Of a stretch of DNA of 64,000 nt, positions 21,245-42,095 are shown one piece after another; position 1 is the stretch's first letter, and each line of letters starts with the position of its first letter. A model generated the notes under the pieces. That model was not told where the DNA came from and ran no database searches. It saw nothing but the letters and a program-made list of their open reading frames with translations. Origin of the DNA: a virus. The stretch lies in the IMG/VR virus record IMGVR_UViG_3300027418_000370. One strand, 5' to 3'. Made by a program: the position numbers and the translations under genes.

Positions 21245-21258
21245 TATTCGTATATTAG
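21227..21258 (+). promoter_or_regulatory. Early/middle promoter for primase operon
   Basis: GTTG(21227-21230)-N20-TATATTAG(21251-21258). Confidence 0.65.
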
Positions 21259-21281
21259 GATATTAACTAGTTATACCCTAT

Positions 21282-22208: not shown

Positions 22209-22987
22209 TCTATAAAGGTGCTAACGTTCTCTATGAACATAAGAGAAAAAACTTAATGTTCGACGGAGAATTAGAACAGATTACTTTCTTAGATAAACGA
22301 GTCTATAAGAAAGAAGAAGGAGTATATTACCCGTCCGTTACTACAGTTCTCCAGTACATGCCTAAGAATAAGTTCTTTGACAACTGGTTAAAAGACGTAG
22401 GTCACAACGCTGACCTTATCATGCGCAAAGCTGCAGAAGAAGGTACAGCAGTACACAATGCAGTAGAGGATCTTATCGCCGGTAAAGAGATTACCTGGAT
22501 GGATGAATTTGGTAATGCTAAGTACAATCTTAGAGTTTGGCAGATGATTCTTAAAGCAGTCGACTTTTTTACCGTACATAAACCAGAAGTTATTGCAACA
22601 GAAGAATTTACGTTCTCCGACAAGCATCAGTACGCAGGTACTGCTGACTTGATTGTTAAGATGGATGGGCAGATTTGGCTATTAGACGTTAAAACCTCCA
22701 ACAACCTACACCGTTCATACGACCTTCAGTTAGCAGCTTACGCTAAGGCCTGGGAAGAGATGTTTGGTCAGAAGATCGAAAGAACAGGTATCTTATGGTT
22801 AAAGTCTAGTAAGCGTAGTGCTTCCAAGAAAGACGGAGTATACCAGGGGAATGGATGGGAAATTAAAGAAGCTCACAACATCGATGATAACTTCGAACTC
22901 TTTAAGACTATCTACAGCTTATACAAACTTGATAACCCTACGACGGAACCTATTTATAATAGTTACCCAACTCGTATCAAGCTATGA
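22205..22987 (+). CDS. PD-(D/E)XK exonuclease
   Basis: YPSVTTVL, GTAVH, YAGTADL, LLDVKTS, QLAAY. Confidence 0.85.
   Translation: MIYKGANVLYEHKRKNLMFDGELEQITFLDKRVYKKEEGVYYPSVTTVLQYMPKNKFFDNWLKDVGHNADLIMRKAAEEGTAVHNAVEDLIAGKEITWMDEFGNAKYNLRVWQMILKAVDFFTVHKPEVIATEEFTFSDKHQYAGTADLIVKMDGQIWLLDVKTSNNLHRSYDLQLAAYAKAWEEMFGQKIERTGILWLKSSKRSASKKDGVYQGNGWEIKEAHNIDDNFELFKTIYSLYKLDNPTTEPIYNSYPTRIKL
22951..22958 (+). promoter_or_regulatory. Late promoter (TATTTATA) inside the nuclease gene end, driving the cargo cluster
   Basis: CTATTTATA 25 nt upstream of ATG 22984. Confidence 0.55.
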
Positions 22988-23922
22988 AATTAATGGAAGC
23001 TCTTTTATCTGAAGCAAAAGCCCGACCAAAGGCGTTGATTATGGCCGGCGGTGCTGGTACCGGAAAGACTCATATGGTCAATACTTTGAAGAAAGCTGGT
23101 GCTATTCCTGAAGATATTACGATCTTTAATCCTGATCAGTATGTAGAGGACAAAAAGAGTCCTGCATACAATAATCTGTCTATGGCTACGTCCATGACCG
23201 ATAAAGCAGCTTCCGACCATGCTTACGAAGGTCAGCCATTTGTATGGGATACAACAGCTAACAACCCAGACAAGACTGTAAACGATATCAGAGCAAAAGG
23301 CTACGACGTGATGATGATTATGATGATCACTCACCCGGCTATCTCTCTTCTTAAGAATTTTGAAAGAGAGCGTAACATTCCTAAGATCGCAGTATTTGAT
23401 ACTTGGATGAGAAGCTTTGAACTAATTAACTACTATCACAAGCTTTTGAAAGATAACTTCGTTATCGTACCGAATATGATGGGCGGTACTTATGATGCTG
23501 AGGTTCGTAAGTTTAACCATGCAGCTAAGAGAGGTGGAGAAGGTATCTTAGAATACATTGACTCGCTAGGAGAACTAAAATCATCCTTCAGAAAAGACTT
23601 TGAGATTGAAGATGAAGCTGCTTTAGTTGCTTACCAAGAGTTAGTAAAACCTCTTCGATTAGACGATAGCGACGAAGATATGACTAAGAATCTTAAGAAG
23701 CACTTTATGGCTACTTGGGAGAAGAAAGGTCAAGGCCCTACGTTTGACTCAATGAAAAAGAAGGTTGCCTCCATTGAACGTAATAGAGACTCAGCTGAGA
23801 AGAAATACAAGGAGGTACTTGATAGAATCGCTAAAGTTATCAATAGCGATCAATACGACTTAGTAACTAAAGGTACAACAGACGCTCAAGTAATTTCCAA
23901 AACTAAGAAGTTCTTTGCATGA
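22984..23922 (+). CDS. P-loop kinase (zeta-toxin/AAA_33-like)
   Basis: IMAGGAGTGKT Walker A, FNPD, VWDTT, NFERERNIP. Confidence 0.75.
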   Translation: MKLMEALLSEAKARPKALIMAGGAGTGKTHMVNTLKKAGAIPEDITIFNPDQYVEDKKSPAYNNLSMATSMTDKAASDHAYEGQPFVWDTTANNPDKTVNDIRAKGYDVMMIMMITHPAISLLKNFERERNIPKIAVFDTWMRSFELINYYHKLLKDNFVIVPNMMGGTYDAEVRKFNHAAKRGGEGILEYIDSLGELKSSFRKDFEIEDEAALVAYQELVKPLRLDDSDEDMTKNLKKHFMATWEKKGQGPTFDSMKKKVASIERNRDSAEKKYKEVLDRIAKVINSDQYDLVTKGTTDAQVISKTKKFFA

Positions 23923-25970
23923 AAGTAGCAGTATTTGGAGGAGGATTTAAACCACCAACCGCAGGACATTTTGGTGTAGTTGAAACAGCTACCAACCAAG
24001 TTCCTGATGCGGACAAATACATTGTATTCGTAGGTAAAGAAGTAAGAGACGGTATTGATCAAGATACTTCTTACGAAATTTGGAAAGTATATCAAAAGTA
24101 CCTCCCGGGTAATGTTGAGATTGTAAAAGCATCTAAACCACCTATTGGAGAGATTTACTCATATGCTTCTAAGAACCCAGACGATCAAGTAGTTTGGATT
24201 TTAGGCGCTAGAGAAGGTAGAGAAGACGATCTAGGAGATATCCAAGACCGTACCTCATACTTCAGAAAAAATCAAGCAAAGTACCCGAATTTAGAGGTCA
24301 AGGTTATTCAAACAGCAGATGGCGGGATGAGCGGTACAAACGCTCGTAAGGCTATTCTAGCAGGAAACAAAGAAGAATTTTTTAAGTATCTTCCTGCGGT
24401 AGTTAAGCAGAAAGATCATATATTTGATATTCTATCTAAAGCGATGAATAACACACCAGAAAAGAAAATGGCTGATGCCATCGATGAAGTATTTGCAAAC
24501 TTCTTTTATACTGAAGAGGATAAAGAATGGATGAACGCTCCAATGGGACCTATTAAAGAAGTCACAAAAGGCTCTCCGGCAGCACCAATTGCTGTACTCC
24601 CATCTAAAGAGAGACAGCGCCTGCAGGACTACACTGAACTAATCCGTAACGTTATATCTTCGGACTTTAATGTAGAGTTTAGAGGAGATCACATCTCAGT
24701 ATCTCTACCTTACTTTGATAAAGAAAAAGACGGACGTAACTACGACGGAACTCCAAATCAAAGACTCCTCCCAGAAGAGACTATAGGTCAGTTTGAATTT
24801 GCTCCTCATATCGCTTCTATCTTAGAATACTGTATGGAGCAAGGCATGACAGTAGTGCCTATCCCTGATATTAAAATCAGACATGACGAAGAAAATGCTG
24901 CGAACCTCTTTGGTAAGACAGCATATTATCAGCCCGATACGCAAGAGATTGTACTCTATGTAACAGGTCGCCACCCTAAGGATGTTCTACGCTCTTTCTG
25001 TCATGAGCTTATCCATCACCAGCAAAATTTAGAAGATCGCTTACCAGTCTTTACCACTCAGAATACTGAAGAAGATGACGTATTAAGAGAGATTGAGCAG
25101 GAAGCTCACATGGGCGGTAGCATGCTATTCCGTCAATGGGAAGATAGATGCAAGATGTCTGAAGCTAATGATCCTCAAGACGGCAAAGCTGCTCCTTACG
25201 GTTCAGGCTACAACCCGGTTAAAGAAGGTACTAAGTATCGTTCAATTGTAGTCGATGTTAGAAAGGCAGTAAATGCGGCTATTAACACACTTCTATCAGG
25301 CGAAAAACTAAAAGGGTACAACGTTAAGACTAAAAGAGAGCCTTCAGATAAGGATAAAGAGATGGCTAAAAAATATGGCTTCTCTCCATTAGGTTTAATG
25401 CTCAATCTAGAAAAGCAGTATGCTAACTTAGGAACATTTCAAAGCAAGAGCGAGAAAGGAACTTCAACTGAAGTAGAAGTGAACCTTAAGTTTGCTCTTT
25501 CAGACGAAGTTAAACCTGGTAAGTTTTATGTTGACGGAGAAGCTTCTTCTGATGAAGGTTCAATAGACATTATACTAGCCTTCAACCCAGAAGACGGAAC
25601 TAATATGCTTCAGTCTATTCAACCAACACTAACTGATCTTATCCGTCACGAGACTGAGCATCTAACTCAAAGTGGAGTTGAAGAGAAGCCTGGTAAATGG
25701 ATGAGAGCTGATCAAGCTAGAAGAGCTAAGATTAGACAGAACCCTGAACTCTTTTATAAGTACTTCTTATTACCTAAAGAGATTGATGCCAACATTCAAG
25801 GGCTTTACGCTAAGGCTAAGTACGAAAAGAAAGATTTTCAATCTACAGTAGATGAATACTTAGCTACTCTAGTAGGGGATGGAATCATTACTCAAGCTAA
25901 TAGTAAGCAAGTATACAACAAGTGGAAATCAAGAATACCGCAACTAGGTGGAATACCGGAATTAAAATAA
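23919..25970 (+). CDS. Multidomain protein: HxGH nucleotidyltransferase + two zincin-like HExxH domains
   Basis: FGGGFKPPTAGH, MSGTNARK; SFCHELIHHQQ; LIRHETEHLTQ. Confidence 0.75.
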   Translation: MKVAVFGGGFKPPTAGHFGVVETATNQVPDADKYIVFVGKEVRDGIDQDTSYEIWKVYQKYLPGNVEIVKASKPPIGEIYSYASKNPDDQVVWILGAREGREDDLGDIQDRTSYFRKNQAKYPNLEVKVIQTADGGMSGTNARKAILAGNKEEFFKYLPAVVKQKDHIFDILSKAMNNTPEKKMADAIDEVFANFFYTEEDKEWMNAPMGPIKEVTKGSPAAPIAVLPSKERQRLQDYTELIRNVISSDFNVEFRGDHISVSLPYFDKEKDGRNYDGTPNQRLLPEETIGQFEFAPHIASILEYCMEQGMTVVPIPDIKIRHDEENAANLFGKTAYYQPDTQEIVLYVTGRHPKDVLRSFCHELIHHQQNLEDRLPVFTTQNTEEDDVLREIEQEAHMGGSMLFRQWEDRCKMSEANDPQDGKAAPYGSGYNPVKEGTKYRSIVVDVRKAVNAAINTLLSGEKLKGYNVKTKREPSDKDKEMAKKYGFSPLGLMLNLEKQYANLGTFQSKSEKGTSTEVEVNLKFALSDEVKPGKFYVDGEASSDEGSIDIILAFNPEDGTNMLQSIQPTLTDLIRHETEHLTQSGVEEKPGKWMRADQARRAKIRQNPELFYKYFLLPKEIDANIQGLYAKAKYEKKDFQSTVDEYLATLVGDGIITQANSKQVYNKWKSRIPQLGGIPELK

Positions 25971-25972
25971 AA

Positions 25973-26602
25973 ATGGGAAAGTTAGCAGATTTACTACTTA
26001 CAGAAGAAGAGCAGAACCCCACTGTTAAATTTAAGCTATACTGCGATATGGACGGAGTCCTTTGTGACTTTGATCAGCAGTTTATGAAGCTTCTCAACGA
26101 CAGTAACTACGGCGGAAAGCACTATAGAACCGAAGAACTAGAGGGCATTAATACCCCTAGTGAGTTTGAATCTAAGTTCGGAGGACCTGAATTTTGGAAG
26201 TTTATTGATGAGATTTGCGGCAAGAAGTTCTGGGCAGAAATGGAATTCACACCAGGAGGTCAACAATTATGGAATGTAATTAGCGAATATAAACCAACTC
26301 TACTTACATCTCCATCCAGAAATATGATCTCAAGAATCGGTAAAAGATCTTGGGTTAAATCACATTTGACTCCTTCACCGCAAGGTATTATATTTAAGTA
26401 TTCATCCTACAAGCAACAAGTAGCAGAAGAAGACGTATCAAAAGGATTAGAACCTATCTTAATTGACGATAGAAGAGATATTATTGACCGCTGGCAGGAT
26501 GCAGGCGGAATTGGTATTCACCACCCTAAGAACGGAGATCCATCGGAAGTTATAAAAAGAATAAAAAAGTTATATGGAAAGTCAACTGAAGAAGGAATTT
26601 GA
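25973..26602 (+). CDS. HAD 5'(3')-nucleotidase-like phosphatase
   Basis: YCDMDGVLCDF, LLTSP, GK..W, ILIDDR, W..AGGIGI; start reassigned to ATG 25973. Confidence 0.8.
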   Translation: MGKLADLLLTEEEQNPTVKFKLYCDMDGVLCDFDQQFMKLLNDSNYGGKHYRTEELEGINTPSEFESKFGGPEFWKFIDEICGKKFWAEMEFTPGGQQLWNVISEYKPTLLTSPSRNMISRIGKRSWVKSHLTPSPQGIIFKYSSYKQQVAEEDVSKGLEPILIDDRRDIIDRWQDAGGIGIHHPKNGDPSEVIKRIKKLYGKSTEEGI

Positions 26603-27143
26603 TTCTAAAGCAGTAAACCGAGTTAGAAACCTTGTAAATAAGGATTACACCTCTCGTACCGTAACTGGAACAGGTTATGAGAAAAAGAGAGAGAAGCATA
26701 GCGAAGGCGATATCTGGGAAGAAGATGGTAGAACGTGGACTATCAAGAACGGTGTTAAACAAAATATAACTAAGTTAGATGCCGCTAAGAAAGCTGCTCA
26801 AACTCCTCTAACTTGCCCACAATGTGCTGGATCAATGAAGCACCATCTAGCTCAAAAGATGTACAAAATACATAAAATGTGCTTTGATTGCGTAGTAGAT
26901 ATGGAAGCTAACCTACGTAAGGCTGGCTTGTATGAGCAGTATGAAAAGCAGATGATGCAAGGAAATATGCAAGCCTGGGCAGCAGGATTAGAACAATGGG
27001 TACAAGATCAGATTAATGAATCTATGTCGTTTGTTACCGAAGACGGAGTAATGGAAGACTGGAACAGTAATGACAATCAGAACCAGAAACTACTTAAAGG
27101 AATGGCAGACTACCTAAAGCATCTTAAGGAGCACATGGAATAG
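26574..27143 (+). CDS. Hypothetical protein with Zn-ribbon
   Basis: GDIWEEDGRTWTIKNG; CPQC...CFDC. Confidence 0.6.
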   Translation: MESQLKKEFDSKAVNRVRNLVNKDYTSRTVTGTGYEKKREKHSEGDIWEEDGRTWTIKNGVKQNITKLDAAKKAAQTPLTCPQCAGSMKHHLAQKMYKIHKMCFDCVVDMEANLRKAGLYEQYEKQMMQGNMQAWAAGLEQWVQDQINESMSFVTEDGVMEDWNSNDNQNQKLLKGMADYLKHLKEHME

Positions 27144-27163
27144 CTATTTATAAAGAAATACCT

Positions 27164-28291
27164 ATGCTTCTAACAGAATCTAAGCTTACCGGAGTATTAA
27201 CAGAAGGTCTCAAATATCATTTAGAGACTAAGACTCCCCTCTACAAAAACGTATTCCGCCCAGGTTCAGAAGAATACTTCAAAACCATTAATCAGGCTCG
27301 TCTTTTAATGAATGAAGGCATGCTTACTGATTTATGTTTGGAGGACATGGAGCTTCTATTTGAAACAGAAGTAGGTACGTACGGCGAATATAACGGTCGA
27401 ATGGTACCTTTAGATTTTCCAATGTTAAATGAGATTGCAATGGTGATTCCTTCCCCTGCTACCTCTTGGAGAGAAGCTTCACAGGAGCCTCTAGTAATGA
27501 AGATGGGGGAAGAGAGATGGATGGATTTAGCTGGTAAAGCTAAAGCAGCCGGTGGACTAGGATACCAGACTAAATACTCAGATATTAAGACATTCTTAGG
27601 AGAACTACCAGCCGGTACTGTAACCTTCTCAGATACTGATCAAGTACAGATGCCCACAGCATTAAAGTATATGGACGGTAATCAAGTCAATTATAAGCTT
27701 ATAGCAGGTTCAGACGTACTAGCCTCTATCCTACCAGAAGATCCAGACCCAGACATGTGGGCAGTAGACATTACAGGTGAAGCTCAAGATACTCCTCTAC
27801 AGGAGATTATTAACATGATCGATGAAGCAGGTCTTAAAGACTTTGAAAAGCAGGCTTTAATCATGAAGATTAAAAAAGCAGCTCAAGGAGCAGGATCCAC
27901 CAAACATCTAGAGCGAATCGTTGACGACCTTATTAAGAGACTAGAGCAACCAAAAGCTACCGGAGTAAAGTATGCTTACGGTAAAAGAGTTGACGAAGCT
28001 AAATACAAAGGTAAAGAGGTTAAACTTAACAAACCAATGAGAAGCTCAGGACCTAAAAAATATAAAGTATACACTAAGAACGCTAAGGGTAACGTTATTG
28101 TAGTTAACTTTGGTGATGCTAAAGGAGGATTGACAGCTAAGATTAATAACGCTAAAGCTCGTAAAGCATTCTCAGATAGACATAACTGTCCTACTAAAAA
28201 GGATAAGACTAAAGCAGGTTATTGGTCATGCAGACTTCCTCGTTATGCAAAACTCCTTGGACTCAAATCAAGCTTTGGAGGATTCTGGTAA
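27164..28291 (+). CDS. Modular hypothetical protein with basic C-terminal domain
   Basis: Late promoter at 27145; C-terminal KKYKVY..VNFGD..ARKAFSDRHNC..AGYWSC. Confidence 0.65.
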   Translation: MLLTESKLTGVLTEGLKYHLETKTPLYKNVFRPGSEEYFKTINQARLLMNEGMLTDLCLEDMELLFETEVGTYGEYNGRMVPLDFPMLNEIAMVIPSPATSWREASQEPLVMKMGEERWMDLAGKAKAAGGLGYQTKYSDIKTFLGELPAGTVTFSDTDQVQMPTALKYMDGNQVNYKLIAGSDVLASILPEDPDPDMWAVDITGEAQDTPLQEIINMIDEAGLKDFEKQALIMKIKKAAQGAGSTKHLERIVDDLIKRLEQPKATGVKYAYGKRVDEAKYKGKEVKLNKPMRSSGPKKYKVYTKNAKGNVIVVNFGDAKGGLTAKINNAKARKAFSDRHNCPTKKDKTKAGYWSCRLPRYAKLLGLKSSFGGFW

Positions 28292-28297
28292 GAAAGT

Positions 28298-28510
28298 ATG
28301 ACCGAAGAGAGACATAGAATCGTTTTAAGTATTGTTATTGTGCTGTGCTTTGCACTTGTAGTGCATGGCATTCTTATCTCTATGCATACAGGCTCTGCTG
28401 TTGGTGATGAATGGAAAGAACTACTTTTATTGTTATTAGGCGCACTAATCGGCAATTTCGGTAAAGTTGTAGATTATTGGTTTAATAATAAAAAAGAAAA
28501 AGATGAGTGA
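28298..28510 (+). CDS. Two-TM membrane protein (holin-like)
   Basis: Two hydrophobic helices, VVDYWF, charged C-terminal tail. Confidence 0.55.
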   Translation: MTEERHRIVLSIVIVLCFALVVHGILISMHTGSAVGDEWKELLLLLLGALIGNFGKVVDYWFNNKKEKDE

Positions 28511-29330
28511 AGTAAACAAATCGGTAGGTAACGATAACGCCGGAGCATCAGCAGGAGCATCTGCAGGTACTGAAGTTACAAACACATCAGTAAGTGCTGG
28601 TGTAGAAGCAAATGCAGAAGTACATGCTGGAGTAGAAAATACAAACCAAATCGGTGATGTAACCATCTCACAAGAAGCCCATGCAGAAGCTGAAGTTCAT
28701 GCTGAAGCAACAACTGAAGCTGGATGGGATGGTAGAAACGCATATGTTGATGCACATGCAGAAGTAGGTGCCTCTGCCGAAGTTGGAGCATCTAACTCAG
28801 TAGAGTATGGCGGAGTAACTAACACAACCGAAGTACACGCAGGAGCAGAAGCTAAAGCATATGTTGGAGCTAGTGGTCAAGTAGGTGCCGATGGTGCTGA
28901 AGGACACGCCGGAGCAATGGCTGGAGCATCAGTAGGTGTAGGAGCATCTAATAGCACATACGATGAGAATGGTAATGGTGCTGAAGCAGGTGCCGGTGTA
29001 TCCGTTGGAGCACAAGTAGGTGCTGAAGTAGGTGGTGGAGCTACGATGGATGATGGTGTTGCAACCATTGGAGTAGAAGGTGAAGTTGCCCTACTAGTCG
29101 GAGTAGACGTTGATCTCTCAGTCAGCGTTGATACTAAACCAGCTCAAGAAGCAGTCGTTGATACAGCAAACACCGTAGCTAAAGAAACTACCAAGGTAGT
29201 AGATAAAGTAGCAGAACCTGTAAACAATGCCGGTAAGGCAGCTGTAGGAGGAGCTAAAGATGCCGGTAATGCAGCAGTTGGCGGAGCTAAGAATGCAGGT
29301 AAGAAAGTAAAAAAAGCGTTTAAGTTCTAA
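28503..29330 (+). CDS. Gly/Ala/Val-rich beta-repeat protein
   Basis: Alternating AEVHAEA/AGASVGVG strands; C-terminal AGxAAVGGAK repeats. Confidence 0.7.
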   Translation: MSEVNKSVGNDNAGASAGASAGTEVTNTSVSAGVEANAEVHAGVENTNQIGDVTISQEAHAEAEVHAEATTEAGWDGRNAYVDAHAEVGASAEVGASNSVEYGGVTNTTEVHAGAEAKAYVGASGQVGADGAEGHAGAMAGASVGVGASNSTYDENGNGAEAGAGVSVGAQVGAEVGGGATMDDGVATIGVEGEVALLVGVDVDLSVSVDTKPAQEAVVDTANTVAKETTKVVDKVAEPVNNAGKAAVGGAKDAGNAAVGGAKNAGKKVKKAFKF

Positions 29331-29624
29331 ATGAGCCGACCTTACACCGATATACAAATCGACGACTACTGCGTTCAACGTAAGTTCGATACTAATGTAG
29401 ACTCTCAGGAGCTATACTGGCATAGAGACGACGAAGATCGAATCGTAGAAGTAATGAAATGCGGCGAAGGATGGAAGTTTCAAACTGACAATGAACTCCC
29501 TATTAACTTAGAAGAGGGTGTAACGATATTTATTTTAAGGCACGAATGGCACCGTGTCATCAAAGGTTCTGGAGACTTACTTATAAAAATTTACAAATAT
29601 GGCAAAGAAGAAACAGTCCGATAA
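29331..29624 (+). CDS. Cupin-fold protein
   Basis: ELYWHRDDEDR ... GWKFQ.DNELP ... WHRVIKG. Confidence 0.7.
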   Translation: MSRPYTDIQIDDYCVQRKFDTNVDSQELYWHRDDEDRIVEVMKCGEGWKFQTDNELPINLEEGVTIFILRHEWHRVIKGSGDLLIKIYKYGKEETVR

Positions 29625-29886
29625 TGAGATTATCGATGAAGTAATCGCACAATCAGCACCAGCTATTGAATCACTTCCAGAAGAAGTAATCGATGAAATT
29701 ATTGCTGCCCCAGTAATTGAAGTAGTAAAAGAGAAAGCTGCCAAAGTAGCAACTAAAGCACCAGGTATGTACCACAATGGTCGTCTGATCGAGAAAGTTA
29801 TCTCTAGATTAGGAAGAACATGGGCAGTTGCTATCGACGGTAAGAGAGAGAAAGTACTTAGATCTGAAATTGAGATTATCAAGTAA
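29599..29886 (+). CDS. Hypothetical protein
   Basis: Coupled ORF, 95 aa. Confidence 0.6.
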   Translation: MAKKKQSDNEIIDEVIAQSAPAIESLPEEVIDEIIAAPVIEVVKEKAAKVATKAPGMYHNGRLIEKVISRLGRTWAVAIDGKREKVLRSEIEIIK

Positions 29887-30029
29887 TGGCTAAGATTAAG
29901 TCTCAATCCGCATCTATAGCTTACGAAAAACCAAACGTAAGCCGTCCAGGTGTACATTCTAAGACTCAAACTTCTCATTTAAAGAGTAGCAAGAACTATA
30001 AAAAGAAGTACCGTGGCCAAGGCAGATAA
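29886..30029 (+). CDS. Small basic protein, 47 aa (not in ORF track)
   Basis: MAKIKSQSASIAYEKPNVSRPGVHSKTQTSHLKSSKNYKKKYRGQGR*; TAATG coupling. Confidence 0.75.
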   Translation: MAKIKSQSASIAYEKPNVSRPGVHSKTQTSHLKSSKNYKKKYRGQGR

Positions 30030-30036
30030 AGCAGCA

Positions 30037-30207
30037 ATGCACGCTTTTATGAGAGACCTTATTAGAGAAGTTCTCACTGAAGAGAAACCTGGCCTATGGG
30101 CTAATATTAGAGCTAAGAGAGCTAGGGGGGAGAAATCCTCTCACCCTAACTCCAAGGCTTTCAAAGATGCAGTTAAAGCAGGCAAAGAAATCAATAAAAA
30201 TAGCTGA
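30037..30207 (+). CDS. Small basic protein with LIREVLTE leader
   Basis: MHAFMRDLIREVLTEEKPGLWANIRAKRARGEK; start reassigned to ATG 30037. Confidence 0.65.
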   Translation: MHAFMRDLIREVLTEEKPGLWANIRAKRARGEKSSHPNSKAFKDAVKAGKEINKNS

Positions 30208-30296
30208 TAAGCTTCCTACCTCAGAAATCCGAAGAAGAACTACGTCAGGGAGATTAGGAGGTGAAATATAATGTTTTTGTAGTTTCCATTATACAG
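30204..30296 (+). ncRNA. Candidate structured cis-regulatory RNA
   Basis: Two stems plus loop-loop pairing; G-U pairs favour the + strand; see findings. Confidence 0.45.
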
Positions 30297-30301
30297 TAAT
30301 T

Positions 30302-31093
30302 ATGAAGAAGAGTAAATTAACAGAGATTATTAGAGAAATGATCCGCAAGCAAGACGGCAAATATGTTGTCTATCCTAAGCACGGCGGTAAAAGACTCGGT
30401 ACTCATGATACTAAAGCAGCAGCTGAAAAACAGTTAGCTGCTATTCATATTAATAAAGAAGTTGTAGAACCTGCTGCTGAATCGGATGTTAATATGCTAC
30501 AGCTTGCTACCGGTATTGGGGTAGAGTTAGAACATACTGATGATAGAGAAGAAGCTAAGAGGATTGCACTACAGCATTTAGCTGAAGATCCTCACTACTA
30601 TAGCAAACTTTTAAAAGTAGGTTTAGAGGAGCAGGAAGAAACTATTGATTTTAATATTCAGGATATCAACGGAACCAAAGTAGTATTAGCTACATACGGT
30701 AAAGATAAGGTAGGAGCATTAAGACTAAAACCATACATGCAATCATACCAAGTAGACTCAGTGATTGTAAAACCAGAATACAGAGGATACGGAATCGGTA
30801 AAGAGATGTACAGATTAGCTCATGAAAAGCTAGGACCGCTTTACTCCGATGCTCATCAAACCGCTGATGCTGCTGCATTATGGCAGAGCCTAATTAAAAG
30901 CGGTGAAGCTAAAAAAGACAGAGACCTTTTTGTAATGACCGAAGGTATTGACGATCCAATGAACCCGGGCATACTAAAAAAAAGACTAGGAAGCCTGTCG
31001 TGTACCAAAGTTAAGGTTGCTAAAGGCAAGCTTAAAGACAAAGGAACCACATACGCTAAAGCCCTGCAAAGGTATTTAAACTACCACTGTTAA
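30302..31093 (+). CDS. Modular protein with GNAT acetyltransferase domain
   Basis: VIVKPEYRGYGIGKEMY motif A; also GVELEHTDD..IALQHL.EDPHYY module. Confidence 0.75.
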   Translation: MKKSKLTEIIREMIRKQDGKYVVYPKHGGKRLGTHDTKAAAEKQLAAIHINKEVVEPAAESDVNMLQLATGIGVELEHTDDREEAKRIALQHLAEDPHYYSKLLKVGLEEQEETIDFNIQDINGTKVVLATYGKDKVGALRLKPYMQSYQVDSVIVKPEYRGYGIGKEMYRLAHEKLGPLYSDAHQTADAAALWQSLIKSGEAKKDRDLFVMTEGIDDPMNPGILKKRLGSLSCTKVKVAKGKLKDKGTTYAKALQRYLNYHC

Positions 31094-31121
31094 GCGCTAT
31101 TTATAAAGAAATAACATTATC

Positions 31122-31649
31122 ATGGCCATATCCTTTAAGAAAGAAATTATCTTAGAAGCTATTCAGCAAGTATTAGCAGAAGCTGAAACAGTAAAGAAAG
31201 TAATCGGACCAAAAGGCGGATCTATTGCTCAAGCAGTATCCCCGGAAGAAGAAATCGAGCTTAAGAAAGCTGGTGCTAAGATTGAGCCGATGGAGGAGGA
31301 TCATAACGAGAATCCAAACGACGAATCAGATATGGCTAAGATACAGCTTCACAATACTGCTAAGTACTGTATCGAACTCTTAAAGATGATTCAAGACGGT
31401 CAGCAGTTAGACGCCTGGGTTCAAAGCAAACTTACTGTAGCTTTCGAGCATATTGATACAGTTAAGCATTACCTAGAAGGTGAAGAATATTTAGATTCTA
31501 CTGAAGCTCCTTCCGAAGAAGAGCCAGAAGCCTTATACGAAGGTGCTACCTGCTGCGGTAGATGCGGCAGAGTTCACGAAAGCTCTCAAGAGTGTAAGAA
31601 GCCTTACATTTCAAAAAGTAGTCCTAAGCATTGCAGCAATAAGAAGTAA
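31122..31649 (+). CDS. Hypothetical head-associated protein
   Basis: Late promoter at 31098; LDAWVQSKLT motif; C-terminal CCGRCGRVH. Confidence 0.6.
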   Translation: MAISFKKEIILEAIQQVLAEAETVKKVIGPKGGSIAQAVSPEEEIELKKAGAKIEPMEEDHNENPNDESDMAKIQLHNTAKYCIELLKMIQDGQQLDAWVQSKLTVAFEHIDTVKHYLEGEEYLDSTEAPSEEEPEALYEGATCCGRCGRVHESSQECKKPYISKSSPKHCSNKK

Positions 31650-32518
31650 TGAAGATTCAAGATCTAAAAAATATTATTGAAGAAGCTTACTACGAGCTTT
31701 TAGCCGAGCAGGGAATGATCTCTACTCCAGCACAAGCTATGTACGAGAAAGCTTGCAAGATGAGTGAAGCTCAACTTAAAACTCTGCTTAACGAACTAGA
31801 GACTCAAGAGTTCCTAGATGCTGTTGAAGATGAATTTGATCTAGAGACTCTAGAACTTATGAAAGGAGTACTTCAAAAACGAATTAACTTCTTAAATAAA
31901 ACTCTAGATATCGCTAATCCTAGAAACGTAGTTAAAGGTTATGCTGGACACCTAACAGAAGCTGAAGGCGACGAGGAAGAAGTACCAGCTGAAGAAGAAA
32001 CACCTGAGACGGAATTTCCTGATGCAGGAGAGGTAGAAGGTGAAGAAGAAGCTCCTGATGCTACTGCAGATATCTTAGCTAAGTTTCCTACTCTTAAGAA
32101 GACGTTAGTTCATTTAATGACTCCTGAATTTGAGGAGTTTGTTGAGAAGGTAGGTTGGATGTCTCCTAAACCATCTACATTTAAAGTAGAGTTTAAGAAT
32201 GGACAAGACATACTACTAAAGTGGATGGGCAAAGGCTTTGAAGCTACAGTAGAAGGTAAAAGGTATTTCCTACAGAATCTAGCCGAATATCAGCAATGCC
32301 TGGATAAGATTACAGACATGCTTGCTTCCGGCCCAATTCAAAGTGGAATGGATGCCGTTAGCGGTGAAGATATCTTCGGGGGAGTAGAAGGCGGTGGCGG
32401 AGAGTTTCCTGGAGAAGAAGGAGGCGCCGCAGGAGCTGAAGCTGGAGCTGAAGCCGGTACTGAAGCAGGAGCTGAAGAAACACCAACAGGTGAAGAAGAT
32501 GTATTTGCAGGAGTGTAA
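31649..32518 (+). CDS. Acidic hypothetical protein (head core-like)
   Basis: MKIQDLKNIIEE leader, Glu-rich linkers. Confidence 0.6.
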   Translation: MKIQDLKNIIEEAYYELLAEQGMISTPAQAMYEKACKMSEAQLKTLLNELETQEFLDAVEDEFDLETLELMKGVLQKRINFLNKTLDIANPRNVVKGYAGHLTEAEGDEEEVPAEEETPETEFPDAGEVEGEEEAPDATADILAKFPTLKKTLVHLMTPEFEEFVEKVGWMSPKPSTFKVEFKNGQDILLKWMGKGFEATVEGKRYFLQNLAEYQQCLDKITDMLASGPIQSGMDAVSGEDIFGGVEGGGGEFPGEEGGAAGAEAGAEAGTEAGAEETPTGEEDVFAGV

Positions 32519-33579
32519 TGAACTTGATAGATAAAATAATCACAGAATGGTCATGGAGAACCGCTAAAGGGTACCCTGACATTAATTCTTTAGAAGATAT
32601 TCAAATACTTAGAGAATTTTTAGGAGAAGAGTTATACGAGGCAGCGTTTAAGCAACTGTCTTTCGGAGATTTAAAAAAATATGGCGGACCCCGTTTAAAA
32701 GTTTTACACGATAAAATCGAAAAAGGAGAGTCTTTTCTTGGAATGAACGATAAAGAATACGTACTCTCTTTTGTTAACGACGAGTATGCTACTTTATTTG
32801 CAAATCAAGATATTGATGGAATTGCTCAAATAGGAGCTCCAAGAATAAACAGTTTTCCTTTTTTTGAAGATGAAAACGGAAACTCTGTCACTATTGGGGA
32901 CTTACTTAAAGCACCTGAATTTGGTGGAAAAGGGCAAGGATCAGGAACTACAAAAGAGGATTTAGCATTAGCAGGTATTAATAGCGCCTTACAGGAGTTA
33001 GGAGCTATCGATCTAAAGTTATCTCCAAATGGAAATGTCTATAAAGGTATTGTTAAAGCTTCAACAGTACCCGGAACTCCTAAGGCTGATTTTACATTAG
33101 ATACGGAAAAAGGACCTGTGATCTTTATCTCACATAAAGACGGTTCTAAGCCAACTGACTTTCAACAGTACGGAGGATTTACCGGATTAATGGAAGAACC
33201 TGAAATTAAAGCTTTTATTGAAGATGTTAGTAAACTTACTAACGGATCATTAGAACCTAAACAGAGTTTTAAAAGAGCATTAAAAGGAGAAGAGATTAAA
33301 TTAAAAGCTATTTACGGGCTAGAACAGAGCACGGAAAATTTTAATATTAATAACTGCCAGGTAGTATACCAAGGAAACGTTAAATTTGTTAAACAACCCG
33401 ACAACAGTTATTTAGTAGAAAGTAACCACACATTATTAAACCCAGAACTCCCAACAGGAGGCTACGAACCTATCTTGTATGTAAGCTACAGAAAAGGAAG
33501 AAATTCAGCTGGGTTATTAAACTGTAGGTTTGGAATTTACCCAACTGCTAAAGCAGCATCAACGGTTACAGAAATTTAA
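32518..33579 (+). CDS. Putative PD-(D/E)XK-fold nuclease
   Basis: TKEDLAL...TPKADF...FISHKDG...FQQY. Confidence 0.45.
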   Translation: MNLIDKIITEWSWRTAKGYPDINSLEDIQILREFLGEELYEAAFKQLSFGDLKKYGGPRLKVLHDKIEKGESFLGMNDKEYVLSFVNDEYATLFANQDIDGIAQIGAPRINSFPFFEDENGNSVTIGDLLKAPEFGGKGQGSGTTKEDLALAGINSALQELGAIDLKLSPNGNVYKGIVKASTVPGTPKADFTLDTEKGPVIFISHKDGSKPTDFQQYGGFTGLMEEPEIKAFIEDVSKLTNGSLEPKQSFKRALKGEEIKLKAIYGLEQSTENFNINNCQVVYQGNVKFVKQPDNSYLVESNHTLLNPELPTGGYEPILYVSYRKGRNSAGLLNCRFGIYPTAKAASTVTEI

Positions 33580-33603: not shown

Positions 33604-33945
33604 ATGAATAAACTACCGTACTTAATCGCCCTCATTGCAATCGTAATTGCAGCAATGTATGCTACGGGACTACACAACCCGTATAAGGCAGCTTACCTAC
33701 AGGAATTAAAAGACCAGAAAGAAGCTAGCCAGGCTAGAGAACTACAATTAGTAAAACGTATTGACTCATTAGCTTTTGCAGCCGGCTTACTACAAGCACA
33801 GGCTGACTCTATTGAGAACGCTTTAGATATCGAGGAAGCAAAACGTAAAAGAGAAAGAGATGCATACAATAAAAAAATTGCTGAGCTTAGCAGGCTTTCT
33901 GTTGATAGCCTTCCCGGCTACTTCGCAAAGCGTTACAATCGTTAA
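33604..33945 (+). CDS. Membrane-anchored coiled-coil protein (i-spanin-like)
   Basis: N-terminal TM plus coiled coil; late promoter at 33588. Confidence 0.5.
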   Translation: MNKLPYLIALIAIVIAAMYATGLHNPYKAAYLQELKDQKEASQARELQLVKRIDSLAFAAGLLQAQADSIENALDIEEAKRKRERDAYNKKIAELSRLSVDSLPGYFAKRYNR

Positions 33946-34279
33946 CGGAGACACTTTAGTTTGTTTTCCTGATCATATGGTTAGGCAGATTATTGCCGAC
34001 CTAGAAGCTGGTGACTTCTGTAAAGAAGAAAAGATTAGCTTAGAAAAGAGCATTGAAGACTATAAGAAGCTTGTAGAGACTAATAAAGCTCAAATTGCTA
34101 ACCTACAGCAGAGACTAGTCACTTATGACGATATCTTTATTGAAAAAGAAAGTCAGATTGCCATTAGAGATAAAGAAATAACAGTACTGGGTAAAGAAAA
34201 GAAAGCTAAATTCTGGACCGGACTTACCTTCGGTGCATCTGGAGGAGCTCTAGCAACGGTACTTCTTCTACTATTATGA
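33860..34279 (+). CDS. Signal-peptide coiled-coil protein with C-terminal TM (spanin partner candidate)
   Basis: Overlaps upstream gene by 86 nt; signal peptide; C-terminal FWTGLTFGASGGALATVLLLLL. Confidence 0.45.
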   Translation: MHTIKKLLSLAGFLLIAFPATSQSVTIVNGDTLVCFPDHMVRQIIADLEAGDFCKEEKISLEKSIEDYKKLVETNKAQIANLQQRLVTYDDIFIEKESQIAIRDKEITVLGKEKKAKFWTGLTFGASGGALATVLLLLL

Positions 34280-37795: not shown

Positions 37796-38647
37796 ATGAA
37801 AATAAAGCATTCGAAGTACAAAAACACTGGATTGATCTTTGAGCTGCTGGTAAAGCAGATCGCTGCCGATACTCTGTCCCGTAAAGACTCGCCGGCCGTT
37901 AAGATCATGAAGAAGTTTTACACCGGTAAGACTTCCTTAGTCCGTGAATTTAAATTGTACGAATACATCCTTAAGAATAAAGGAGTAAGTCAATCCAAAG
38001 GAGAGACTATCGTTTCCACTATTATCGAAATTTCTCGTAAGTTAGAAAGAGAGACAATCAAGAAGCAGAAGTACGATCTTATCGCTGAGATTAAAAACAG
38101 CTACGACCTCGATGAGTTCTTCTCAATGAAGGTAAGAGACTATAAAGCTCTAGCTGCCCTATATTGCTTAATGGAAGCACAGAATGCTGACTTAGCCGAT
38201 CCACAGACTTTAGTGGATAATAAAATGACTGTATTAGAGCATTTAACTGAATCTAAGCAAAACGAAGAGGACGTTAAAGATGCTTTAGTTGAAGAATATG
38301 CAAAGTATGATAAGGATCTTAGAATGCTTACATACAAGATTTTACTTGAGAAGTTTAACGGTGAATATGCCAACCTACTTCCAGAACAGAAAGCTATCTT
38401 AAGAGAGTTTATTACTGCTTCCGAATCTCAAGTAAAACTTAGAACAATGATTAACGAGGAGCTTGAAAAAATTGGCCTTGCTGTCGAGAAGATGAAGACT
38501 AAGGTTAGTAACGATATCGCTAGAATTAAACTAGACGAGGTTGCTAAGACTATCAAGCCCCTTTCAAAACAAACTCGTATTAACGATACCCACATCGTAA
38601 ACCTACTACAGTATTACGACTTAGTTAACGAGCTTAATACCTTATGA
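37796..38647 (+). CDS. Head-module hypothetical protein
   Basis: Between portal and protease; late promoter at 37769. Confidence 0.6.
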   Translation: MKIKHSKYKNTGLIFELLVKQIAADTLSRKDSPAVKIMKKFYTGKTSLVREFKLYEYILKNKGVSQSKGETIVSTIIEISRKLERETIKKQKYDLIAEIKNSYDLDEFFSMKVRDYKALAALYCLMEAQNADLADPQTLVDNKMTVLEHLTESKQNEEDVKDALVEEYAKYDKDLRMLTYKILLEKFNGEYANLLPEQKAILREFITASESQVKLRTMINEELEKIGLAVEKMKTKVSNDIARIKLDEVAKTIKPLSKQTRINDTHIVNLLQYYDLVNELNTL

Positions 38648-38865
38648 AAAGAAGTGAAGTAGCAGAACTATTAAGAGAGTATGTTAGAGAACAACTCTCA
38701 GAAATGAACACTACTGGTGCAGTAGGAGCATATCAAACTCCTAATGCTTTTTCAAAAGACGATCGCGATAACTTAGCCACTAAGTTTATGGCTAAAATGG
38801 GTTTCAAGAAGACACAACGACCAAACAGACCTTCTAGCACTAAAATGGTAGACTACAGACAATGA
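38644..38865 (+). CDS. Small head-module protein
   Basis: LLREYVREQLSEM leader followed by TGAVGAYQTPNAF. Confidence 0.6.
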   Translation: MKRSEVAELLREYVREQLSEMNTTGAVGAYQTPNAFSKDDRDNLATKFMAKMGFKKTQRPNRPSSTKMVDYRQ

Positions 38866-39854
38866 AAACATTACAAGAGAAATACAACGCTGTCGCCGAA
38901 GGTAGCTTCGCGAAATCCCAATTTGTTAGAGATGCTAGTATGCAACTACCTAACCTTATCTCTAAGGTTAATAGCTACGATGATACTGTAAATATTCTCA
39001 AGAATAGAGGTATGATTGCTGAAGCTAAGATGCAAGAACCTAAGTACTCTACAGCTAAGCCTGAGGATGCAATTGCTCCTGATGTATTAGATACAGGTAT
39101 CAAATTTGAGCTTGATAACAAATACGGTACTTTAGACGTTACTCCAGAGCAATATGAGAAATGTAAAGCAATGGCTGTTAGTAACCTAGCTAAAGACGTA
39201 CTCTACTACGTTAAGCAAGATAGCATTCAGCTAGAGACTCCAGGAGAGAAAATGGAGAAGGTAGTAGTTAAGGAAGAAGTTAGCGAGATGGGTAATGAGC
39301 CTGTAATACTAAACAAAGCTTTAATTACCGGCTTACTTAAAGACTTTTTAGCTGATGCTGATCCTAGAGACGAAGTTGCTAAAGCTTATGTAGCTTCCGT
39401 AATGAGAGACTTTAAATCAGGAGATCCTTCTAGAACAACTCAGTATGCTACTTGGCAGTCAATGGACGATCTAGAGGACGACTTCAATGATTATATGGGT
39501 CAAAGAATGGATGAGAAGAAAGACGGCCCTGTATACCCTGAAGATAAGCATACATTAACTCCTGACGAGCTTGGATATGATGTAGACGAAGGAACTACAC
39601 TTGAGCTTTCTGACGAAGAGATGGAAAAACTTCATAAAGACGGTAAAGTAACATTAGCCAACGGAAGCGTACTACACTATGTAGGTAAAGTAGCCGAATA
39701 CGAAGCACCTAAATACTCAGAAGAGGAACTAGCTCAGATCTCTAAAGATCAAGAAGAGCACGATGAGGAAACTTTACGTCGTGAACGTGGTCTAGAAGAA
39801 CAACAGCTTAAAGAGTTATTCAAGAAGATCATTACTAAAGTAATTACAGAGTAA
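38862..39854 (+). CDS. Acidic prohead core/internal protein candidate
   Basis: Many [LIVM]xE sites; directly upstream of the protease. Confidence 0.55.
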   Translation: MKTLQEKYNAVAEGSFAKSQFVRDASMQLPNLISKVNSYDDTVNILKNRGMIAEAKMQEPKYSTAKPEDAIAPDVLDTGIKFELDNKYGTLDVTPEQYEKCKAMAVSNLAKDVLYYVKQDSIQLETPGEKMEKVVVKEEVSEMGNEPVILNKALITGLLKDFLADADPRDEVAKAYVASVMRDFKSGDPSRTTQYATWQSMDDLEDDFNDYMGQRMDEKKDGPVYPEDKHTLTPDELGYDVDEGTTLELSDEEMEKLHKDGKVTLANGSVLHYVGKVAEYEAPKYSEEELAQISKDQEEHDEETLRRERGLEEQQLKELFKKIITKVITE

Positions 39855-39856
39855 CC

Positions 39857-40435
39857 ATGGCAAACGTATTAGTAGAATATACCCCATTTAAATCTGTTCT
39901 TAGAGAATCTAAGGAAAGACCGGGCGTTTTTGAAGTCGAAGGCGTAATGCAAAGAGCAGGAGCTCAAAACCAAAACGGCAGAGTATACGATAAGAAAGTT
40001 CTACTTAGAGAAGTTAACAACTACCTAGAAAACTTTGTTAAAGTAGGTAATGCCTATGGTGAATTAGATCACCCAGAGTCTCCAATTGTATCTCTAAAGA
40101 ACGCCTCTCACGTAGTTAAAGATCTATGGTGGGACGGCGACGATTTATGCGGTAGAGTAGAGTTACTTAATACTCCAGCCGGGAATATTGTAAAAGAAAT
40201 TATTAAAGGTGGACACACCATCGGTATCTCTTCTAGAGGTACTGGATCTGTTAAACCTACAAACGAAGGATATTTAGAAGTTCAAGATGACTTCGAGCTA
40301 GTGTGTTGGGACTTTGTTTCCAATCCATCTACTCACGGAGCATTTATGAACCCTATTTCATTGAACGAAGGAGCTGTAAAGCAAGATAAGTATGGTAAAT
40401 TAGATTCCATTCTTAACGACATCTTAAGAGCTTAA
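39857..40435 (+). CDS. Prohead protease (T4 gp21-like)
   Basis: NQNGRVY, GELDHP, TPAGNI, GISSRGTGS, DFVSNPSTHGA. Confidence 0.95.
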   Translation: MANVLVEYTPFKSVLRESKERPGVFEVEGVMQRAGAQNQNGRVYDKKVLLREVNNYLENFVKVGNAYGELDHPESPIVSLKNASHVVKDLWWDGDDLCGRVELLNTPAGNIVKEIIKGGHTIGISSRGTGSVKPTNEGYLEVQDDFELVCWDFVSNPSTHGAFMNPISLNEGAVKQDKYGKLDSILNDILRA

Positions 40436-40453: not shown

Positions 40454-40624
40454 ATGACATCACAAGAACTATTTGACAGGATTGCTGAACATTTCACAAC
40501 CCTAGAAGCCGAACACGGAAAACCAACTAAAGCTGCTCACTCTAGAGCTAGAAAGGCAGCCGGAGAGATTAAAAAGCTTATTACAGAGTATAGAAAAGCT
40601 TCAACAGCTGAAGATAAAGCCTAA
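40454..40624 (+). CDS. Histone H1-like Hc1-family protein, 56 aa (not in ORF track)
   Basis: MTSQELFDRIAEHFTTLEAEHGKPTKAAHSRARKAAGEIKKLITEYRKASTAEDKA*; KAAxxRARK...LxxExRK motif. Confidence 0.75.
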   Translation: MTSQELFDRIAEHFTTLEAEHGKPTKAAHSRARKAAGEIKKLITEYRKASTAEDKA

Positions 40625-40913: not shown

Positions 40914-42095
40914 ATGGCTAACAAAGATTTATTCAAGCAGGCTATTGCTGATGCTAAATCTATTCGTGAAGCTGCTATCACTAACGCAAAACTTGCTTTA
41001 GAGGAGTCGTTAACTCCACAGTTAAAAGAGCTTTTAGCTCAACGTTTAGCTGAGATGGAAGAAGAAGCAGAGAACCAAGAGGTTCTTGCTGAAGCTGAAG
41101 TTGAAGAGACTGAAACTATGGAAGAAGGCGACTACAAAGAAGAAGTAGCGGAGGCTGAAGAAGCTGAAGAAAAAGAGGAAGAAGAAGGTGAAGAAGCTGG
41201 TGAAGAAGAAGCTGAGGGTGACTCTGAAGAATCAGAGGACGAAGCTGAAGAAGATCTAGAGGTTGAAGACATGACTGTCGATGACCTTAAAGACCTAATC
41301 CGTGATATCCTTTCTCAGGAAATGGGTGACATGGAAGCGCCTGAAGGTGAAGAAGGTGATGAGGAAGCTGAAGATATGGTAGGCATGGATATGACTGCTG
41401 AACCTGAGGCTGAAGCCGGAGAGGAAGAAATTAACCTCGACGAACTCATGGCTGAACTCGCTGAAATGGCTAAAGACGAAGATACTGTTGAAGAGACTAT
41501 CAACGATCCAGAGACTGAAACTGCTCACGGTAACGTCGCAGAAGAAGAAGAGACTATGGAAGAAGGACCTATGGATAAGATCAAGCAATTAGTTGCTAAG
41601 ATGCAGCAAAACGCTAAAGAGGGTAAACCACTTATCGATGACGAATTCTTCAAGTTTGCTGAGAAAATGGATATCTTAGATCCAGGTACAGTTACAGCCG
41701 GTATGGCTAAGTCTGGTTCTGGTAAGACATCCTCTATCGGTGAAGAACTCGCTGAAGCTATGGAGACTATCGAAGCTCTTCGCAAAGATCTTAATGAAGT
41801 AAACTTACTAAATGCTAAGTTACTTTACGTTAATAAGGTATTCAAGGCTAACGCCCTTACTGAATCACAGAAAGCTACAGTTATTGCTGCTTTCGACAAA
41901 GCTGAGACAGTTAAAGAAGTTAAGCTTGTTTTTGAAACGGTTAGCGAAAACATTCCTTCTGGTAAAAAAGAAGTAGTTAAGGAAGCCAAGGGCTTTGCTT
42001 CAGCTGCTGTAGGAACATCTGACAAACCAGAAGTAATTGCTGAAGCTAATCAGGCTGTATTACGCATGCAAAAACTTGCAGGAATTATTAAATAA
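40914..42095 (+). CDS. Prohead scaffolding protein
   Basis: Very acidic coiled coil between protease and major capsid gene; C-terminal RMQKLAGI. Confidence 0.85.
   Translation: MANKDLFKQAIADAKSIREAAITNAKLALEESLTPQLKELLAQRLAEMEEEAENQEVLAEAEVEETETMEEGDYKEEVAEAEEAEEKEEEEGEEAGEEEAEGDSEESEDEAEEDLEVEDMTVDDLKDLIRDILSQEMGDMEAPEGEEGDEEAEDMVGMDMTAEPEAEAGEEEINLDELMAELAEMAKDEDTVEETINDPETETAHGNVAEEEETMEEGPMDKIKQLVAKMQQNAKEGKPLIDDEFFKFAEKMDILDPGTVTAGMAKSGSGKTSSIGEELAEAMETIEALRKDLNEVNLLNAKLLYVNKVFKANALTESQKATVIAAFDKAETVKEVKLVFETVSENIPSGKKEVVKEAKGFASAAVGTSDKPEVIAEANQAVLRMQKLAGIIK

Follow-up and report, generated by a model that had tools for sequence, protein, structure and literature searches.

Putative capsid-targeting-like leaders on a variable accessory gene cassette beside the head module of a T4-like virus

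The capsid-targeting sequence (CTS) of phage T4 is MKTYQEFIAE, and a published paper describes its removal by a single cut, with the cargo kept in the head. In the T4 record, gp24 starts MAKINELLRE/S, gp67 MEGLIE/A, and gp22 MLKE/QLIAE/A (the slash marks a cut or a predicted cut), and the gp23 prodomain has the sites LLE/G, IFE/N, and LTE/A. In the giant phages, a T4-like protease reportedly acts on head ejection proteins such as phiKZ gp175 and SPN3US gp245, cutting them after Glu ahead of DNA packaging. Iyer, Burroughs, Anand, de Souza, and Aravind (2017; PMC5512222) listed zeta-like kinases, GNATs, and metallopeptidases encoded beside late genes and predicted that these proteins are packaged. 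Here, we consider positions 22950 to 33579 of a 64,000-nucleotide stretch of viral DNA, IMG/VR record IMGVR_UViG_3300027418_000370, the whole of which is called the window. The segment has short N-terminal leaders on unrelated proteins, an enrichment of such leaders over other genes, late-type promoter motifs, a prohead protease encoded farther along, swapping of cargo behind constant leaders, and gene fission and fusion at the leaders. We propose, with our confidence evenly balanced, that it is a late-expressed accessory cassette in which most proteins carry an N-terminal address peptide working like the T4 CTS, and that these proteins are packaged, cut, and injected.

Among cultured phages, Flavobacterium phage vB_FspM_immuto (hereafter immuto) is the nearest relative of the window, with 76% identity in the capsid protein. 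A T4-type head module is present in the window. All window genes are on the + strand. A primase and a PD-(D/E)XK exonuclease are encoded 5′ of the cassette, which itself lies directly 5′ of the terminase, behind late-type motifs. The head module runs from 34276 onward in the order large terminase, gp20-type portal (PF07230 match, 2e-73), three unnamed open reading frames (ORFs), protease, scaffold-position protein, and capsid protein. Genes are named below by their first nucleotide. The cassette is laid out in three units, as follows.

22950–22958, + strand: late-type motif CTATTTATA, heading unit 1, kinase to 26574 (exact-motif statistics).
22984–23922, + strand: Zeta-toxin-like P-loop kinase with the 10-residue leader MKLMEALLSE/A (PF06414, 2.5e-13).
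23919–25970, + strand: modular protein with an NMNAT/PPAT-like nucleotidyltransferase and two HExxH (zincin-like) modules (phrog_3041, NCBIfam, and PDB profile matches).
25973–26602, + strand: NT5C-type HAD 5′-nucleotidase with the leader MGKLADLLLTE/E (PF06941, phrog_2643).
26574–27143, + strand: conserved Cys-rich (Zn-ribbon-like) protein of 189 residues, CxxC...CxxC, without a leader (57–63% identity across relatives).
27144–27152, + strand: late-type motif CTATTTATA, heading unit 2 (exact-motif statistics).
27164–28291, + strand: modular protein with the N-terminus MLLTESKLTGVLTE/G, a 185-residue insert, and a basic C-terminal module, phrog_7595 (comparison with immuto).
28298–29330, + strand: small membrane protein and Ala/Gly-rich protein (likeness to an immuto gene pair).
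29886–30207, + strand: two very basic small proteins, the second with the leader (MHAF)MRDLIREVLTE/E followed by KPGLWANIRAKRARGEK (sequence and orthologues).
30302–31093, + strand: protein with the leader MKKSKLTEIIRE/M, a KYVVYP module, DUF5661, GNAT, and a conserved C-terminal tail (PF18905, PF13508).
31097–31105, + strand: late-type motif CTATTTATA, heading unit 3 (exact-motif statistics).
31122–31649, + strand: protein with the class-1 leader MAISFKKEIILEAIQQVLAE/A, followed by a helical module and a CxxC ribbon (leader hidden Markov model (HMM), E=2.8e-10).
31649–32518, + strand: protein with the class-1 leader MKIQDLKNIIEEAYYELLAE/Q, then a helical region, an acidic linker, a conserved alpha/beta 'KFPT...PKPSTFKV' module, and a Gly/Glu/Ala tail (AF2 model).
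32518–33579, + strand: two-helix N-terminal adaptor (residues 1–36, ...KGYPD...), flexible linker with LYE/A, and a restriction-endonuclease-like cargo domain (AF2, pLDDT 88).

A first-pass annotation, made from the letters of the window, had pointed to leaders ending in [LI]-x-E on the proteins of this region. The N-termini that it quoted are present, except that the 30037 ORF reads MHAFMRDLIREVLTE and its orthologues start at the inner Met. The pattern [LI][LI]xE occurs in the first 15 residues of 9/15 cassette-region genes versus 5/49 genes elsewhere in the window (Fisher p=2e-4), and in about 2% of internal 15-residue windows. The capsid protein, 38644, 7755, and 45690 are among the outside matches, as had been noticed. 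To extend the comparison, 80 loci around terminase relatives, of which IMG/VR holds 593, were fetched, and their proteins were clustered on the sequence after residue 30 to lessen non-independence. Counted by family over these loci and immuto, the leader is found in 17/81 cassette families versus 12/265 structural and other families (p=2e-5); since the pattern was chosen after looking at the data, both p-values are indicative only. The excess of the motif in the cassette is seen at both scales. Cargo families that are absent from the window also bear leaders in the 80 related loci, for example MKLIDLLLEE..., MRKLTNILLEA..., and MIKLIDLIKEI....

It could be argued that the resemblance is compositional, or an effect of translation starts, in an AT-rich phage of a host without Shine–Dalgarno sequences, where N-terminal helices rich in K, E, L, and I would contain [LI]xE by chance. 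Indeed, plain [LI]xE occurs in 10–25% of windows and lies near the N-terminus in 33% of structural families, and its internal density in the modular proteins is at expectation. We nevertheless regard this explanation as very improbable, given the four- to five-fold enrichment over other genes of the same genomes. In the leader codons, synonymous sites are near saturation (pS 0.5–0.7 versus pN 0.09–0.25, in a test biased by the choice of members on their protein pattern), and the L and E are fixed while neighbouring residues vary. Because the codon differences are mostly synonymous, the leaders appear to be conserved as protein. With the same caveat on the choice of members, the saturation led us to reject the idea that the conserved N-termini are mere handles for DNA recombination.

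Three kinds of address may be distinguished from their sequences: a leader of 10–12 residues, M-x-K-L-x-x-L-L-x-E; a two-part helix of about 20 residues ending in VLAE; and a two-helix adaptor of 36 residues, to which a flexible linker containing L-x-E is joined. A further leader class, found outside the window, begins MNNFDLRKFLTENKLT and is carried by tandem paralogues, which lie 5′ of the terminase in L073 (2505–4120) and L074 (6631–8519) and, in immuto (117631, 118632, and 125241), between protease and scaffold.

The exact motif CTATTTATA has eight copies in the window, all on the + strand and 15–35 nt 5′ of an ATG, a number that 0/100 shuffles reach. Three of them head the cassette units, and the rest are found ahead of the portal gene and of further genes in the structural block. 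Immuto has the motif about 25 nt 5′ of its terminase, portal, sheath, tube, hub, and tape-measure genes; some of its non-structural genes with leaders are preceded by it as well. The earlier proposal of late promoters ahead of cassette genes is thus supported at 22950, 27144, and 31097, by a motif common to virion genes, and this association suggests that the cassette is expressed late. The T4 late promoter TATAAATA is not in the window. A second upstream motif, TTCnTATATTwrGwTAT, occurs at 229–245, 2253–2269, and 21247–21263, where it precedes the primase and left-end genes; its three sites, versus about 1.2 expected, are not significant alone, and it may represent an early or middle promoter class.

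The NT5C family gives the broadest view of how leaders relate to gene fission and fusion. All 14 of 14 distinct N-termini of the NT5C clade keep [LI]xE 11–18 residues before the DMDG motif; kinase orthologues keep LLQE/A and LILE/A. An exhaustive cluster-representative search collected NT5C relatives, and DMDG could be placed in 123 of the best 150. In 74 of these 123, the NT5C is the C-terminal module of a larger protein (up to 1547 residues), with [LI]-x-E 6–20 residues before DMDG in 60/74. Among the stand-alone forms, 31/49 begin with a leader about 10 residues long (e.g., MIKLTDLLKE/V), and most others start at the first strand; that a stand-alone NT5C comes either with a 10-residue leader or without any also speaks against a compositional origin. 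NT5C is found fused C-terminally to 23919-type proteins with LFE/N or LNE/D at the joint, and a metagenomic homologue of 1547 residues, P0290, joins an Fe/Mn superoxide dismutase, a zeta-type kinase, and a C-terminal NT5C in one chain. From these fusions, unit 1 looks like the split version of a fused chain.

Unit 3 offers a second case. The proteins 31122 and 31649 correspond to parts of a single 841-residue immuto protein, to whose residues 528–633 the former is homologous. In that protein, the sequence SELKEIMLEAYIEVLQE is internal, at residues 674–693, exactly where 31649 begins with MKIQDLKNIIEEAYYELLAE, and a leader HMM trained on relatives only finds the internal site (E=2e-5).

Cargo is exchanged behind constant leaders among close relatives, as comparison of the window with the locus L007 and 29 other loci reveals. 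L007 encodes a large terminase (TerL) identical to that of the window, with about 95% nucleotide identity through the head genes. In L007, 1.1 kb of unrelated sequence takes the exact place of the 32518 cargo, codon 27 to the stop (32597–33577); the stretch 30600–30941 of 30302, which holds the end of the DUF5661 match and the GNAT domain, is missing; and the 31122 homologue has a 300-nt insert. Over the 30 loci, the terminase-adjacent gene keeps about 36–45 N-terminal residues, at total lengths of 340–507 residues, and the orthologues of 30302 keep leader and tail, with a middle that ranges from nothing (76 residues) to DUF5661 plus GNAT (263 residues).

Such mobility of modules also suits an alternative, which we judge rather unlikely, that the cassette is a shuffled pool of 'polyvalent proteins' acting in the cytoplasm or packaged in another way. 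The helices and [LI]xE joints would then be linkers or oligomerisation elements, and any cutting would be done by the HExxH modules of the cassette. The 23919 protein has two invariant HExxH motifs (H362/E363/H366 and H577/E578/H581), autoproteolysis by metallopeptidase domains has been predicted in polyvalent proteins (Iyer et al. 2017, PMC5512222), and the order in which homologues join these modules varies widely, in the long chains mentioned above. Over 3000 proteins belong to the family of 23919, among them split and fused forms and forms with inserts near residues 200 and 412; the modules of 27164 (its middle one) and of 30037 (GLWANI) are found inserted at residue 412 in 23919 homologues. 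The two metallopeptidases announced by the first-pass annotation stand as far as these two invariant motifs go; otherwise, the family matches are weak. Searches of the 23919 sequence against solved structures gave nothing significant, and its family profile gave weak matches to NaMN/NMN adenylyltransferases over the first 40–150 residues and none for the HExxH modules. What argues against the polyvalent explanation is a set of links between the leaders and the head, in which the following genes take part.

38644–38865, + strand: small protein in the gp67/gp68 position with the leader MKRSEVAELLRE/YVREQLSE/M (synteny with T4).
39857–40435, + strand: S77/gp21-type prohead protease, the presumed processing enzyme (PF03420, 1e-33; phrog_207, 1.8e-52).
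40914–42095, + strand: acidic protein in the scaffold (gp22) position, ending RMQKLAGIIK (position and composition).
42116–43723, + strand: gp23-type major capsid protein, its N-terminal prodomain with LNE/S, LLE/G, and ILE/N (PF07068, 1e-80).

The assignment of 39857 as a T4-like prohead protease, made in the first-pass annotation, agrees with its PF03420 match and with the flanking portal (PF07230) and major capsid protein (PF07068). The LLEG and ILENQ (I[FL]ENQ) of the window's capsid prodomain align with T4 gp23 sites, so that the [LI]-x-E rule plausibly holds for the 39857 protease. The leader sites match this T4 gp21 rule and the capsid prodomain.

A leader HMM trained on the cassette was run over 1086 proteins at E<0.01. 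Its only matches were cassette N-termini, two internal joints, orthologues of 38644 (MKISELRKLVQEVLQE/A), and 7755. Among early or other proteins, 0/166 were matched, and the leader class is common to the cassette and the head protein in the gp67 position. The scaffold supplies a further link. The C-terminus RMQKLAGII(K) of the scaffold-position protein (42069–42095 in the window) is invariant in 22 relatives, and in immuto two unrelated proteins (111675–112139 and 25061–25456) have RMQKLAGII at the N-terminus, followed by TE/S; one of the two is in the cassette, and one is behind the late-type motif. As a leader, this copy of the scaffold tail looks like an address taken from the end of the scaffold that would bind the shell. 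Finally, among long viral contigs, those with a leader-bearing stand-alone NT5C contain an S77 protease in 7/7 cases, four of them complete genomes. The polyvalent explanation draws in its turn on three contigs with fused NT5C, 36–63% complete, in which S77 is not seen.

These links also bear on the idea that the leaders are tags for a target other than the capsid, be it a modifying enzyme, a chaperone, the tail or baseplate lumen, or a late multi-enzyme complex. The gene 7755, the best HMM match outside the cassette, lies among baseplate genes, and the replacement of the 32518 adaptor in other phages by a fused KFPT module hints at docking on a carrier. We give such a target a distinctly poor chance since the HMM matches, the scaffold tail, and the S77 co-occurrence tie the leaders to the head module, the pattern obeys the rule of a protease that is present, and no candidate modifying enzyme is constantly linked here.

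On the reading that we prefer, of capsid-addressed cargo, the leader would recruit a protein to the prohead during assembly, into its scaffold core, and the gp21-type protease 39857 would then cleave after the Glu of [LI]-x-E. This cleavage would strip the leader and, in fused forms, might separate the modules. Once trimmed, the proteins would stay inside the capsid until they passed, together with the DNA, into the next host. Candidate cargo comprises the kinase, the NMNAT-like/HExxH protein, the nucleotidase, the acetyltransferase, the restriction-endonuclease-like nuclease, and the basic peptides. The domain calls of the first-pass annotation are supported for this list (Zeta-type kinase, NMNAT-like nucleotidyltransferase, NT5C phosphatase, GNAT, restriction-endonuclease-like fold, and basic peptides).

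The same annotation placed internal protease sites at apparent domain joints, and this part of it is weak. About 5–6 of some 10 homology break points coincide with such sites, namely LNE/I (residue 90 of 27164), LEE/Q and MTE/G (30302), LYE/G (31122), and LYE/A (32518); the immuto homologue of 27164, for instance, lacks residues 91–275, with its break at LNE/I. However, the density of [LI]xE is no higher than chance, and such matches come easily because acidic linkers follow hydrophobic domain ends. The hexamer CKMSEA is, as had been seen, shared by two proteins, but it looks like a coincidence. We rejected it as a common processing site, since it is unconserved in the 23919 family, its Ser codons differ, and a single hexamer is marginal.

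Several observations weigh against the proposal that the cassette proteins are addressed to the capsid. In the modular proteins, [LI]xE is as dense as composition predicts (7 seen and 7.3 expected in 23919). An N-terminal scan found no leader in 23919, 26574, 28298, 28503, and 29331. The leaders are unlike one another and unlike the T4 CTS, so that 'one signal' is an assumption; their patterns were defined after the data had been seen, and related sequences are not independent. Individual sites are not always kept: VLTE/G of 27164 is absent in immuto, and the first ITE/W of 32518 reads FFKKFSY in the wider family. Leaderless NT5C contigs have S77 in 0/5, a weak control in that all five are fragments, 18–53% complete. 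Early read-through transcription of the cassette is possible, because all genes are on one strand.

Nor does the whole span of about 10 kb, which had been proposed as cargo, fit; most genes may, and at least 3–4 look otherwise (26574, 28298, and 28503). The gene 26574, present in all relatives, shares 29 nt with the end of the NT5C gene and is probably not cargo. In 23919, which lacks a leader of its own, the start overlaps the kinase stop. The genes 28298 and 28503 are probably lysis-linked rather than cargo, as their immuto counterparts suggest. The Ala/Gly-rich protein of 275 residues (28503–29330) has 85% nucleotide identity to immuto gene 83, far above that of its neighbours, and immuto gene 83 is located elsewhere, beside chitinase, holin, and YneF genes; 28503–29330 looks like a recently exchanged gene.

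In the adaptor-bearing gene 32518, an address and a cargo may be combined. Its model has a low-confidence linker at residues 37–42, after the adaptor. The cargo domain matches MspI, HhaI, and HinP1I with Z of 7.5, 7.4, and 6.4 over 147–163 residues (the next row is at 4.2), and E147, D191, S205, and K207 (S205-x-K207) are invariant. Domain searches and searches of solved structures gave nothing significant at the sequence level, and a search of the protein atlas returned unnamed viral clusters only. The cargo is likely, but not certainly, a restriction-endonuclease-like nuclease of the PD-(D/E)XK type (MspI/HinP1I/HhaI group), the reservation arising because the Foldseek match alone is weak (E 0.04). 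A homologue of this domain in phiM12 sits among small hypothetical genes. In about 50/54 homologues, the linker, whose predicted order is low, has [LI]xE 4–6 residues ahead of the cargo, and the middle and following residues of the site vary.

In other phages, a 32518-type nuclease carries, in place of the adaptor, a fused copy of the 31649 KFPT module, and so the adaptor of 32518 may dock on the 31649 protein. Among cultured phages, the KFPT module is found in immuto only. A fold search of 31649 returned generic helical-hairpin matches (best Z 7.3); a frataxin-like match of its alpha/beta module, at Z 6.2, is not read as a relationship. It is tempting to go further and to imagine, across the aquatic T4-like clade of the 593 terminase relatives, plug-in cargo with interchangeable addresses: a two-helix adaptor would dock an exchangeable nuclease on a constant carrier, a copied scaffold tail would serve as another address, the enzymes would be loaded, cut at [LI]-x-E, and injected, and the nuclease would attack host DNA while sparing deazaguanine-modified phage DNA. 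We consider this fuller version unlikely.

Around the head genes, a few further proteins deserve mention. Between the prohead protease and the scaffold gene lies a 56-residue histone H1-like Hc1 protein (40454–40624; PF07432, 2e-9), which starts MTSQELFDRIAE/H and is a candidate DNA-condensing internal head protein. This slot is variable: L047 and L050 have there a leader-bearing protein of 181 residues, and immuto has another small gene. The head-module protein 38862–39854 starts MKTLQE, which over these six residues is the closest string to the T4 CTS (MKTYQE). Only its first 59 residues are kept between the window and immuto, and its stretch 39533–39798 varies even in comparison with L007, which is nearly identical; this protein is a possible further cargo resembling internal proteins. 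Directly 5′ of the terminase are two small overlapping genes (33604–33945 and 33860–34279). The product of one has an N-terminal membrane helix and a coiled coil, and that of the other has a signal-peptide-like start, a coiled coil, and a hydrophobic C-terminal end; the pair may have a spanin-like or packaging-accessory role. A small terminase was not recognised.

If the proposal is correct, a short tag would allow injected (first-minute) phage proteins to be predicted from metagenomes, in widespread phages of Bacteroidota, and the T4 capsid-targeting mechanism would be ancient and general in the T4 superfamily rather than a T-even speciality. The leaders would be natural tools for packaging foreign proteins. 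The swapped cargo marks an arms-race locus that is worth mining for anti-defence functions. Since immuto and its host, Flavobacterium sp. LMO8, are cultured, the idea is directly testable.

The closest comparison is with the T4 CTS and its internal proteins (IPI, IPII, IPIII, and Alt). In both systems, a gp21-family protease adjoins portal and capsid genes; leaders of about 10 residues have an M-K start and a hydrophobic-hydrophobic-x-Glu end; the leaders stand on unrelated proteins, some of them very basic; and cargo varies among close relatives behind a constant leader, with late expression, which here is suggested by motif association. In contrast to T4, the leaders here are not homologous to MKTYQEFIAE, with which they agree in length and pattern only, and they fall into several classes (10 residues, about 20 residues, and the 36-residue adaptor). 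Instead of small inhibitors, the candidate cargo consists mainly of enzymes and modular proteins, and the genes form one 10-kb block 5′ of the terminase.

With polyvalent proteins (PMC5512222), the cassette shares unrelated effector-type domains (zeta-like kinase, GNAT, metallopeptidase-like, nucleotidyltransferase, and nuclease) placed beside late or virion genes, and their combination in many orders, with homologues of up to 1547 residues. Within the window, such multi-domain chains are 23919 (nucleotidyltransferase plus two HExxH) and 30302 (DUF5661 plus GNAT), and homologous fusions vary the order. The pool of the window differs in being largely split into separate genes with their own leaders, and its joints follow the prohead-protease rule, not a predicted autoprotease rule. 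The hallmark domains MPTase-PolyVal, MuF, ART, and DarB-type helicase gave no Pfam match at E<0.1 in the window; weak metallopeptidase-like matches to DUF6782/DUF6647 are present there, and PF20573 is matched by the homologues P0222 and P0224.

In the heads of phiKZ and SPN3US, a gp21-like protease reportedly processes many non-shell proteins, as is proposed here, but the motifs there have small residues at P3, and the proteins belong to the inner body or to ejection and are conserved, unlike a hypervariable enzyme cassette. As with the cargo-loading peptides of encapsulins and the coat-binding tails of scaffolds, unrelated cargo would be addressed through a short peptide binding to the inner face of an HK97-fold shell, and the immuto scaffold tail RMQKLAGII does recur as a leader. 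Here, however, the address is N-terminal and not C-terminal, a protease site follows the peptide, and the case comes from immuto, not from the window. Overall, it is plausible that the cassette is a variant of the T4 CTS and internal-protein system merged with polyvalent domain pools, from which the several leader classes, the split and tagged genes, and the joints of prohead-protease type set it apart.

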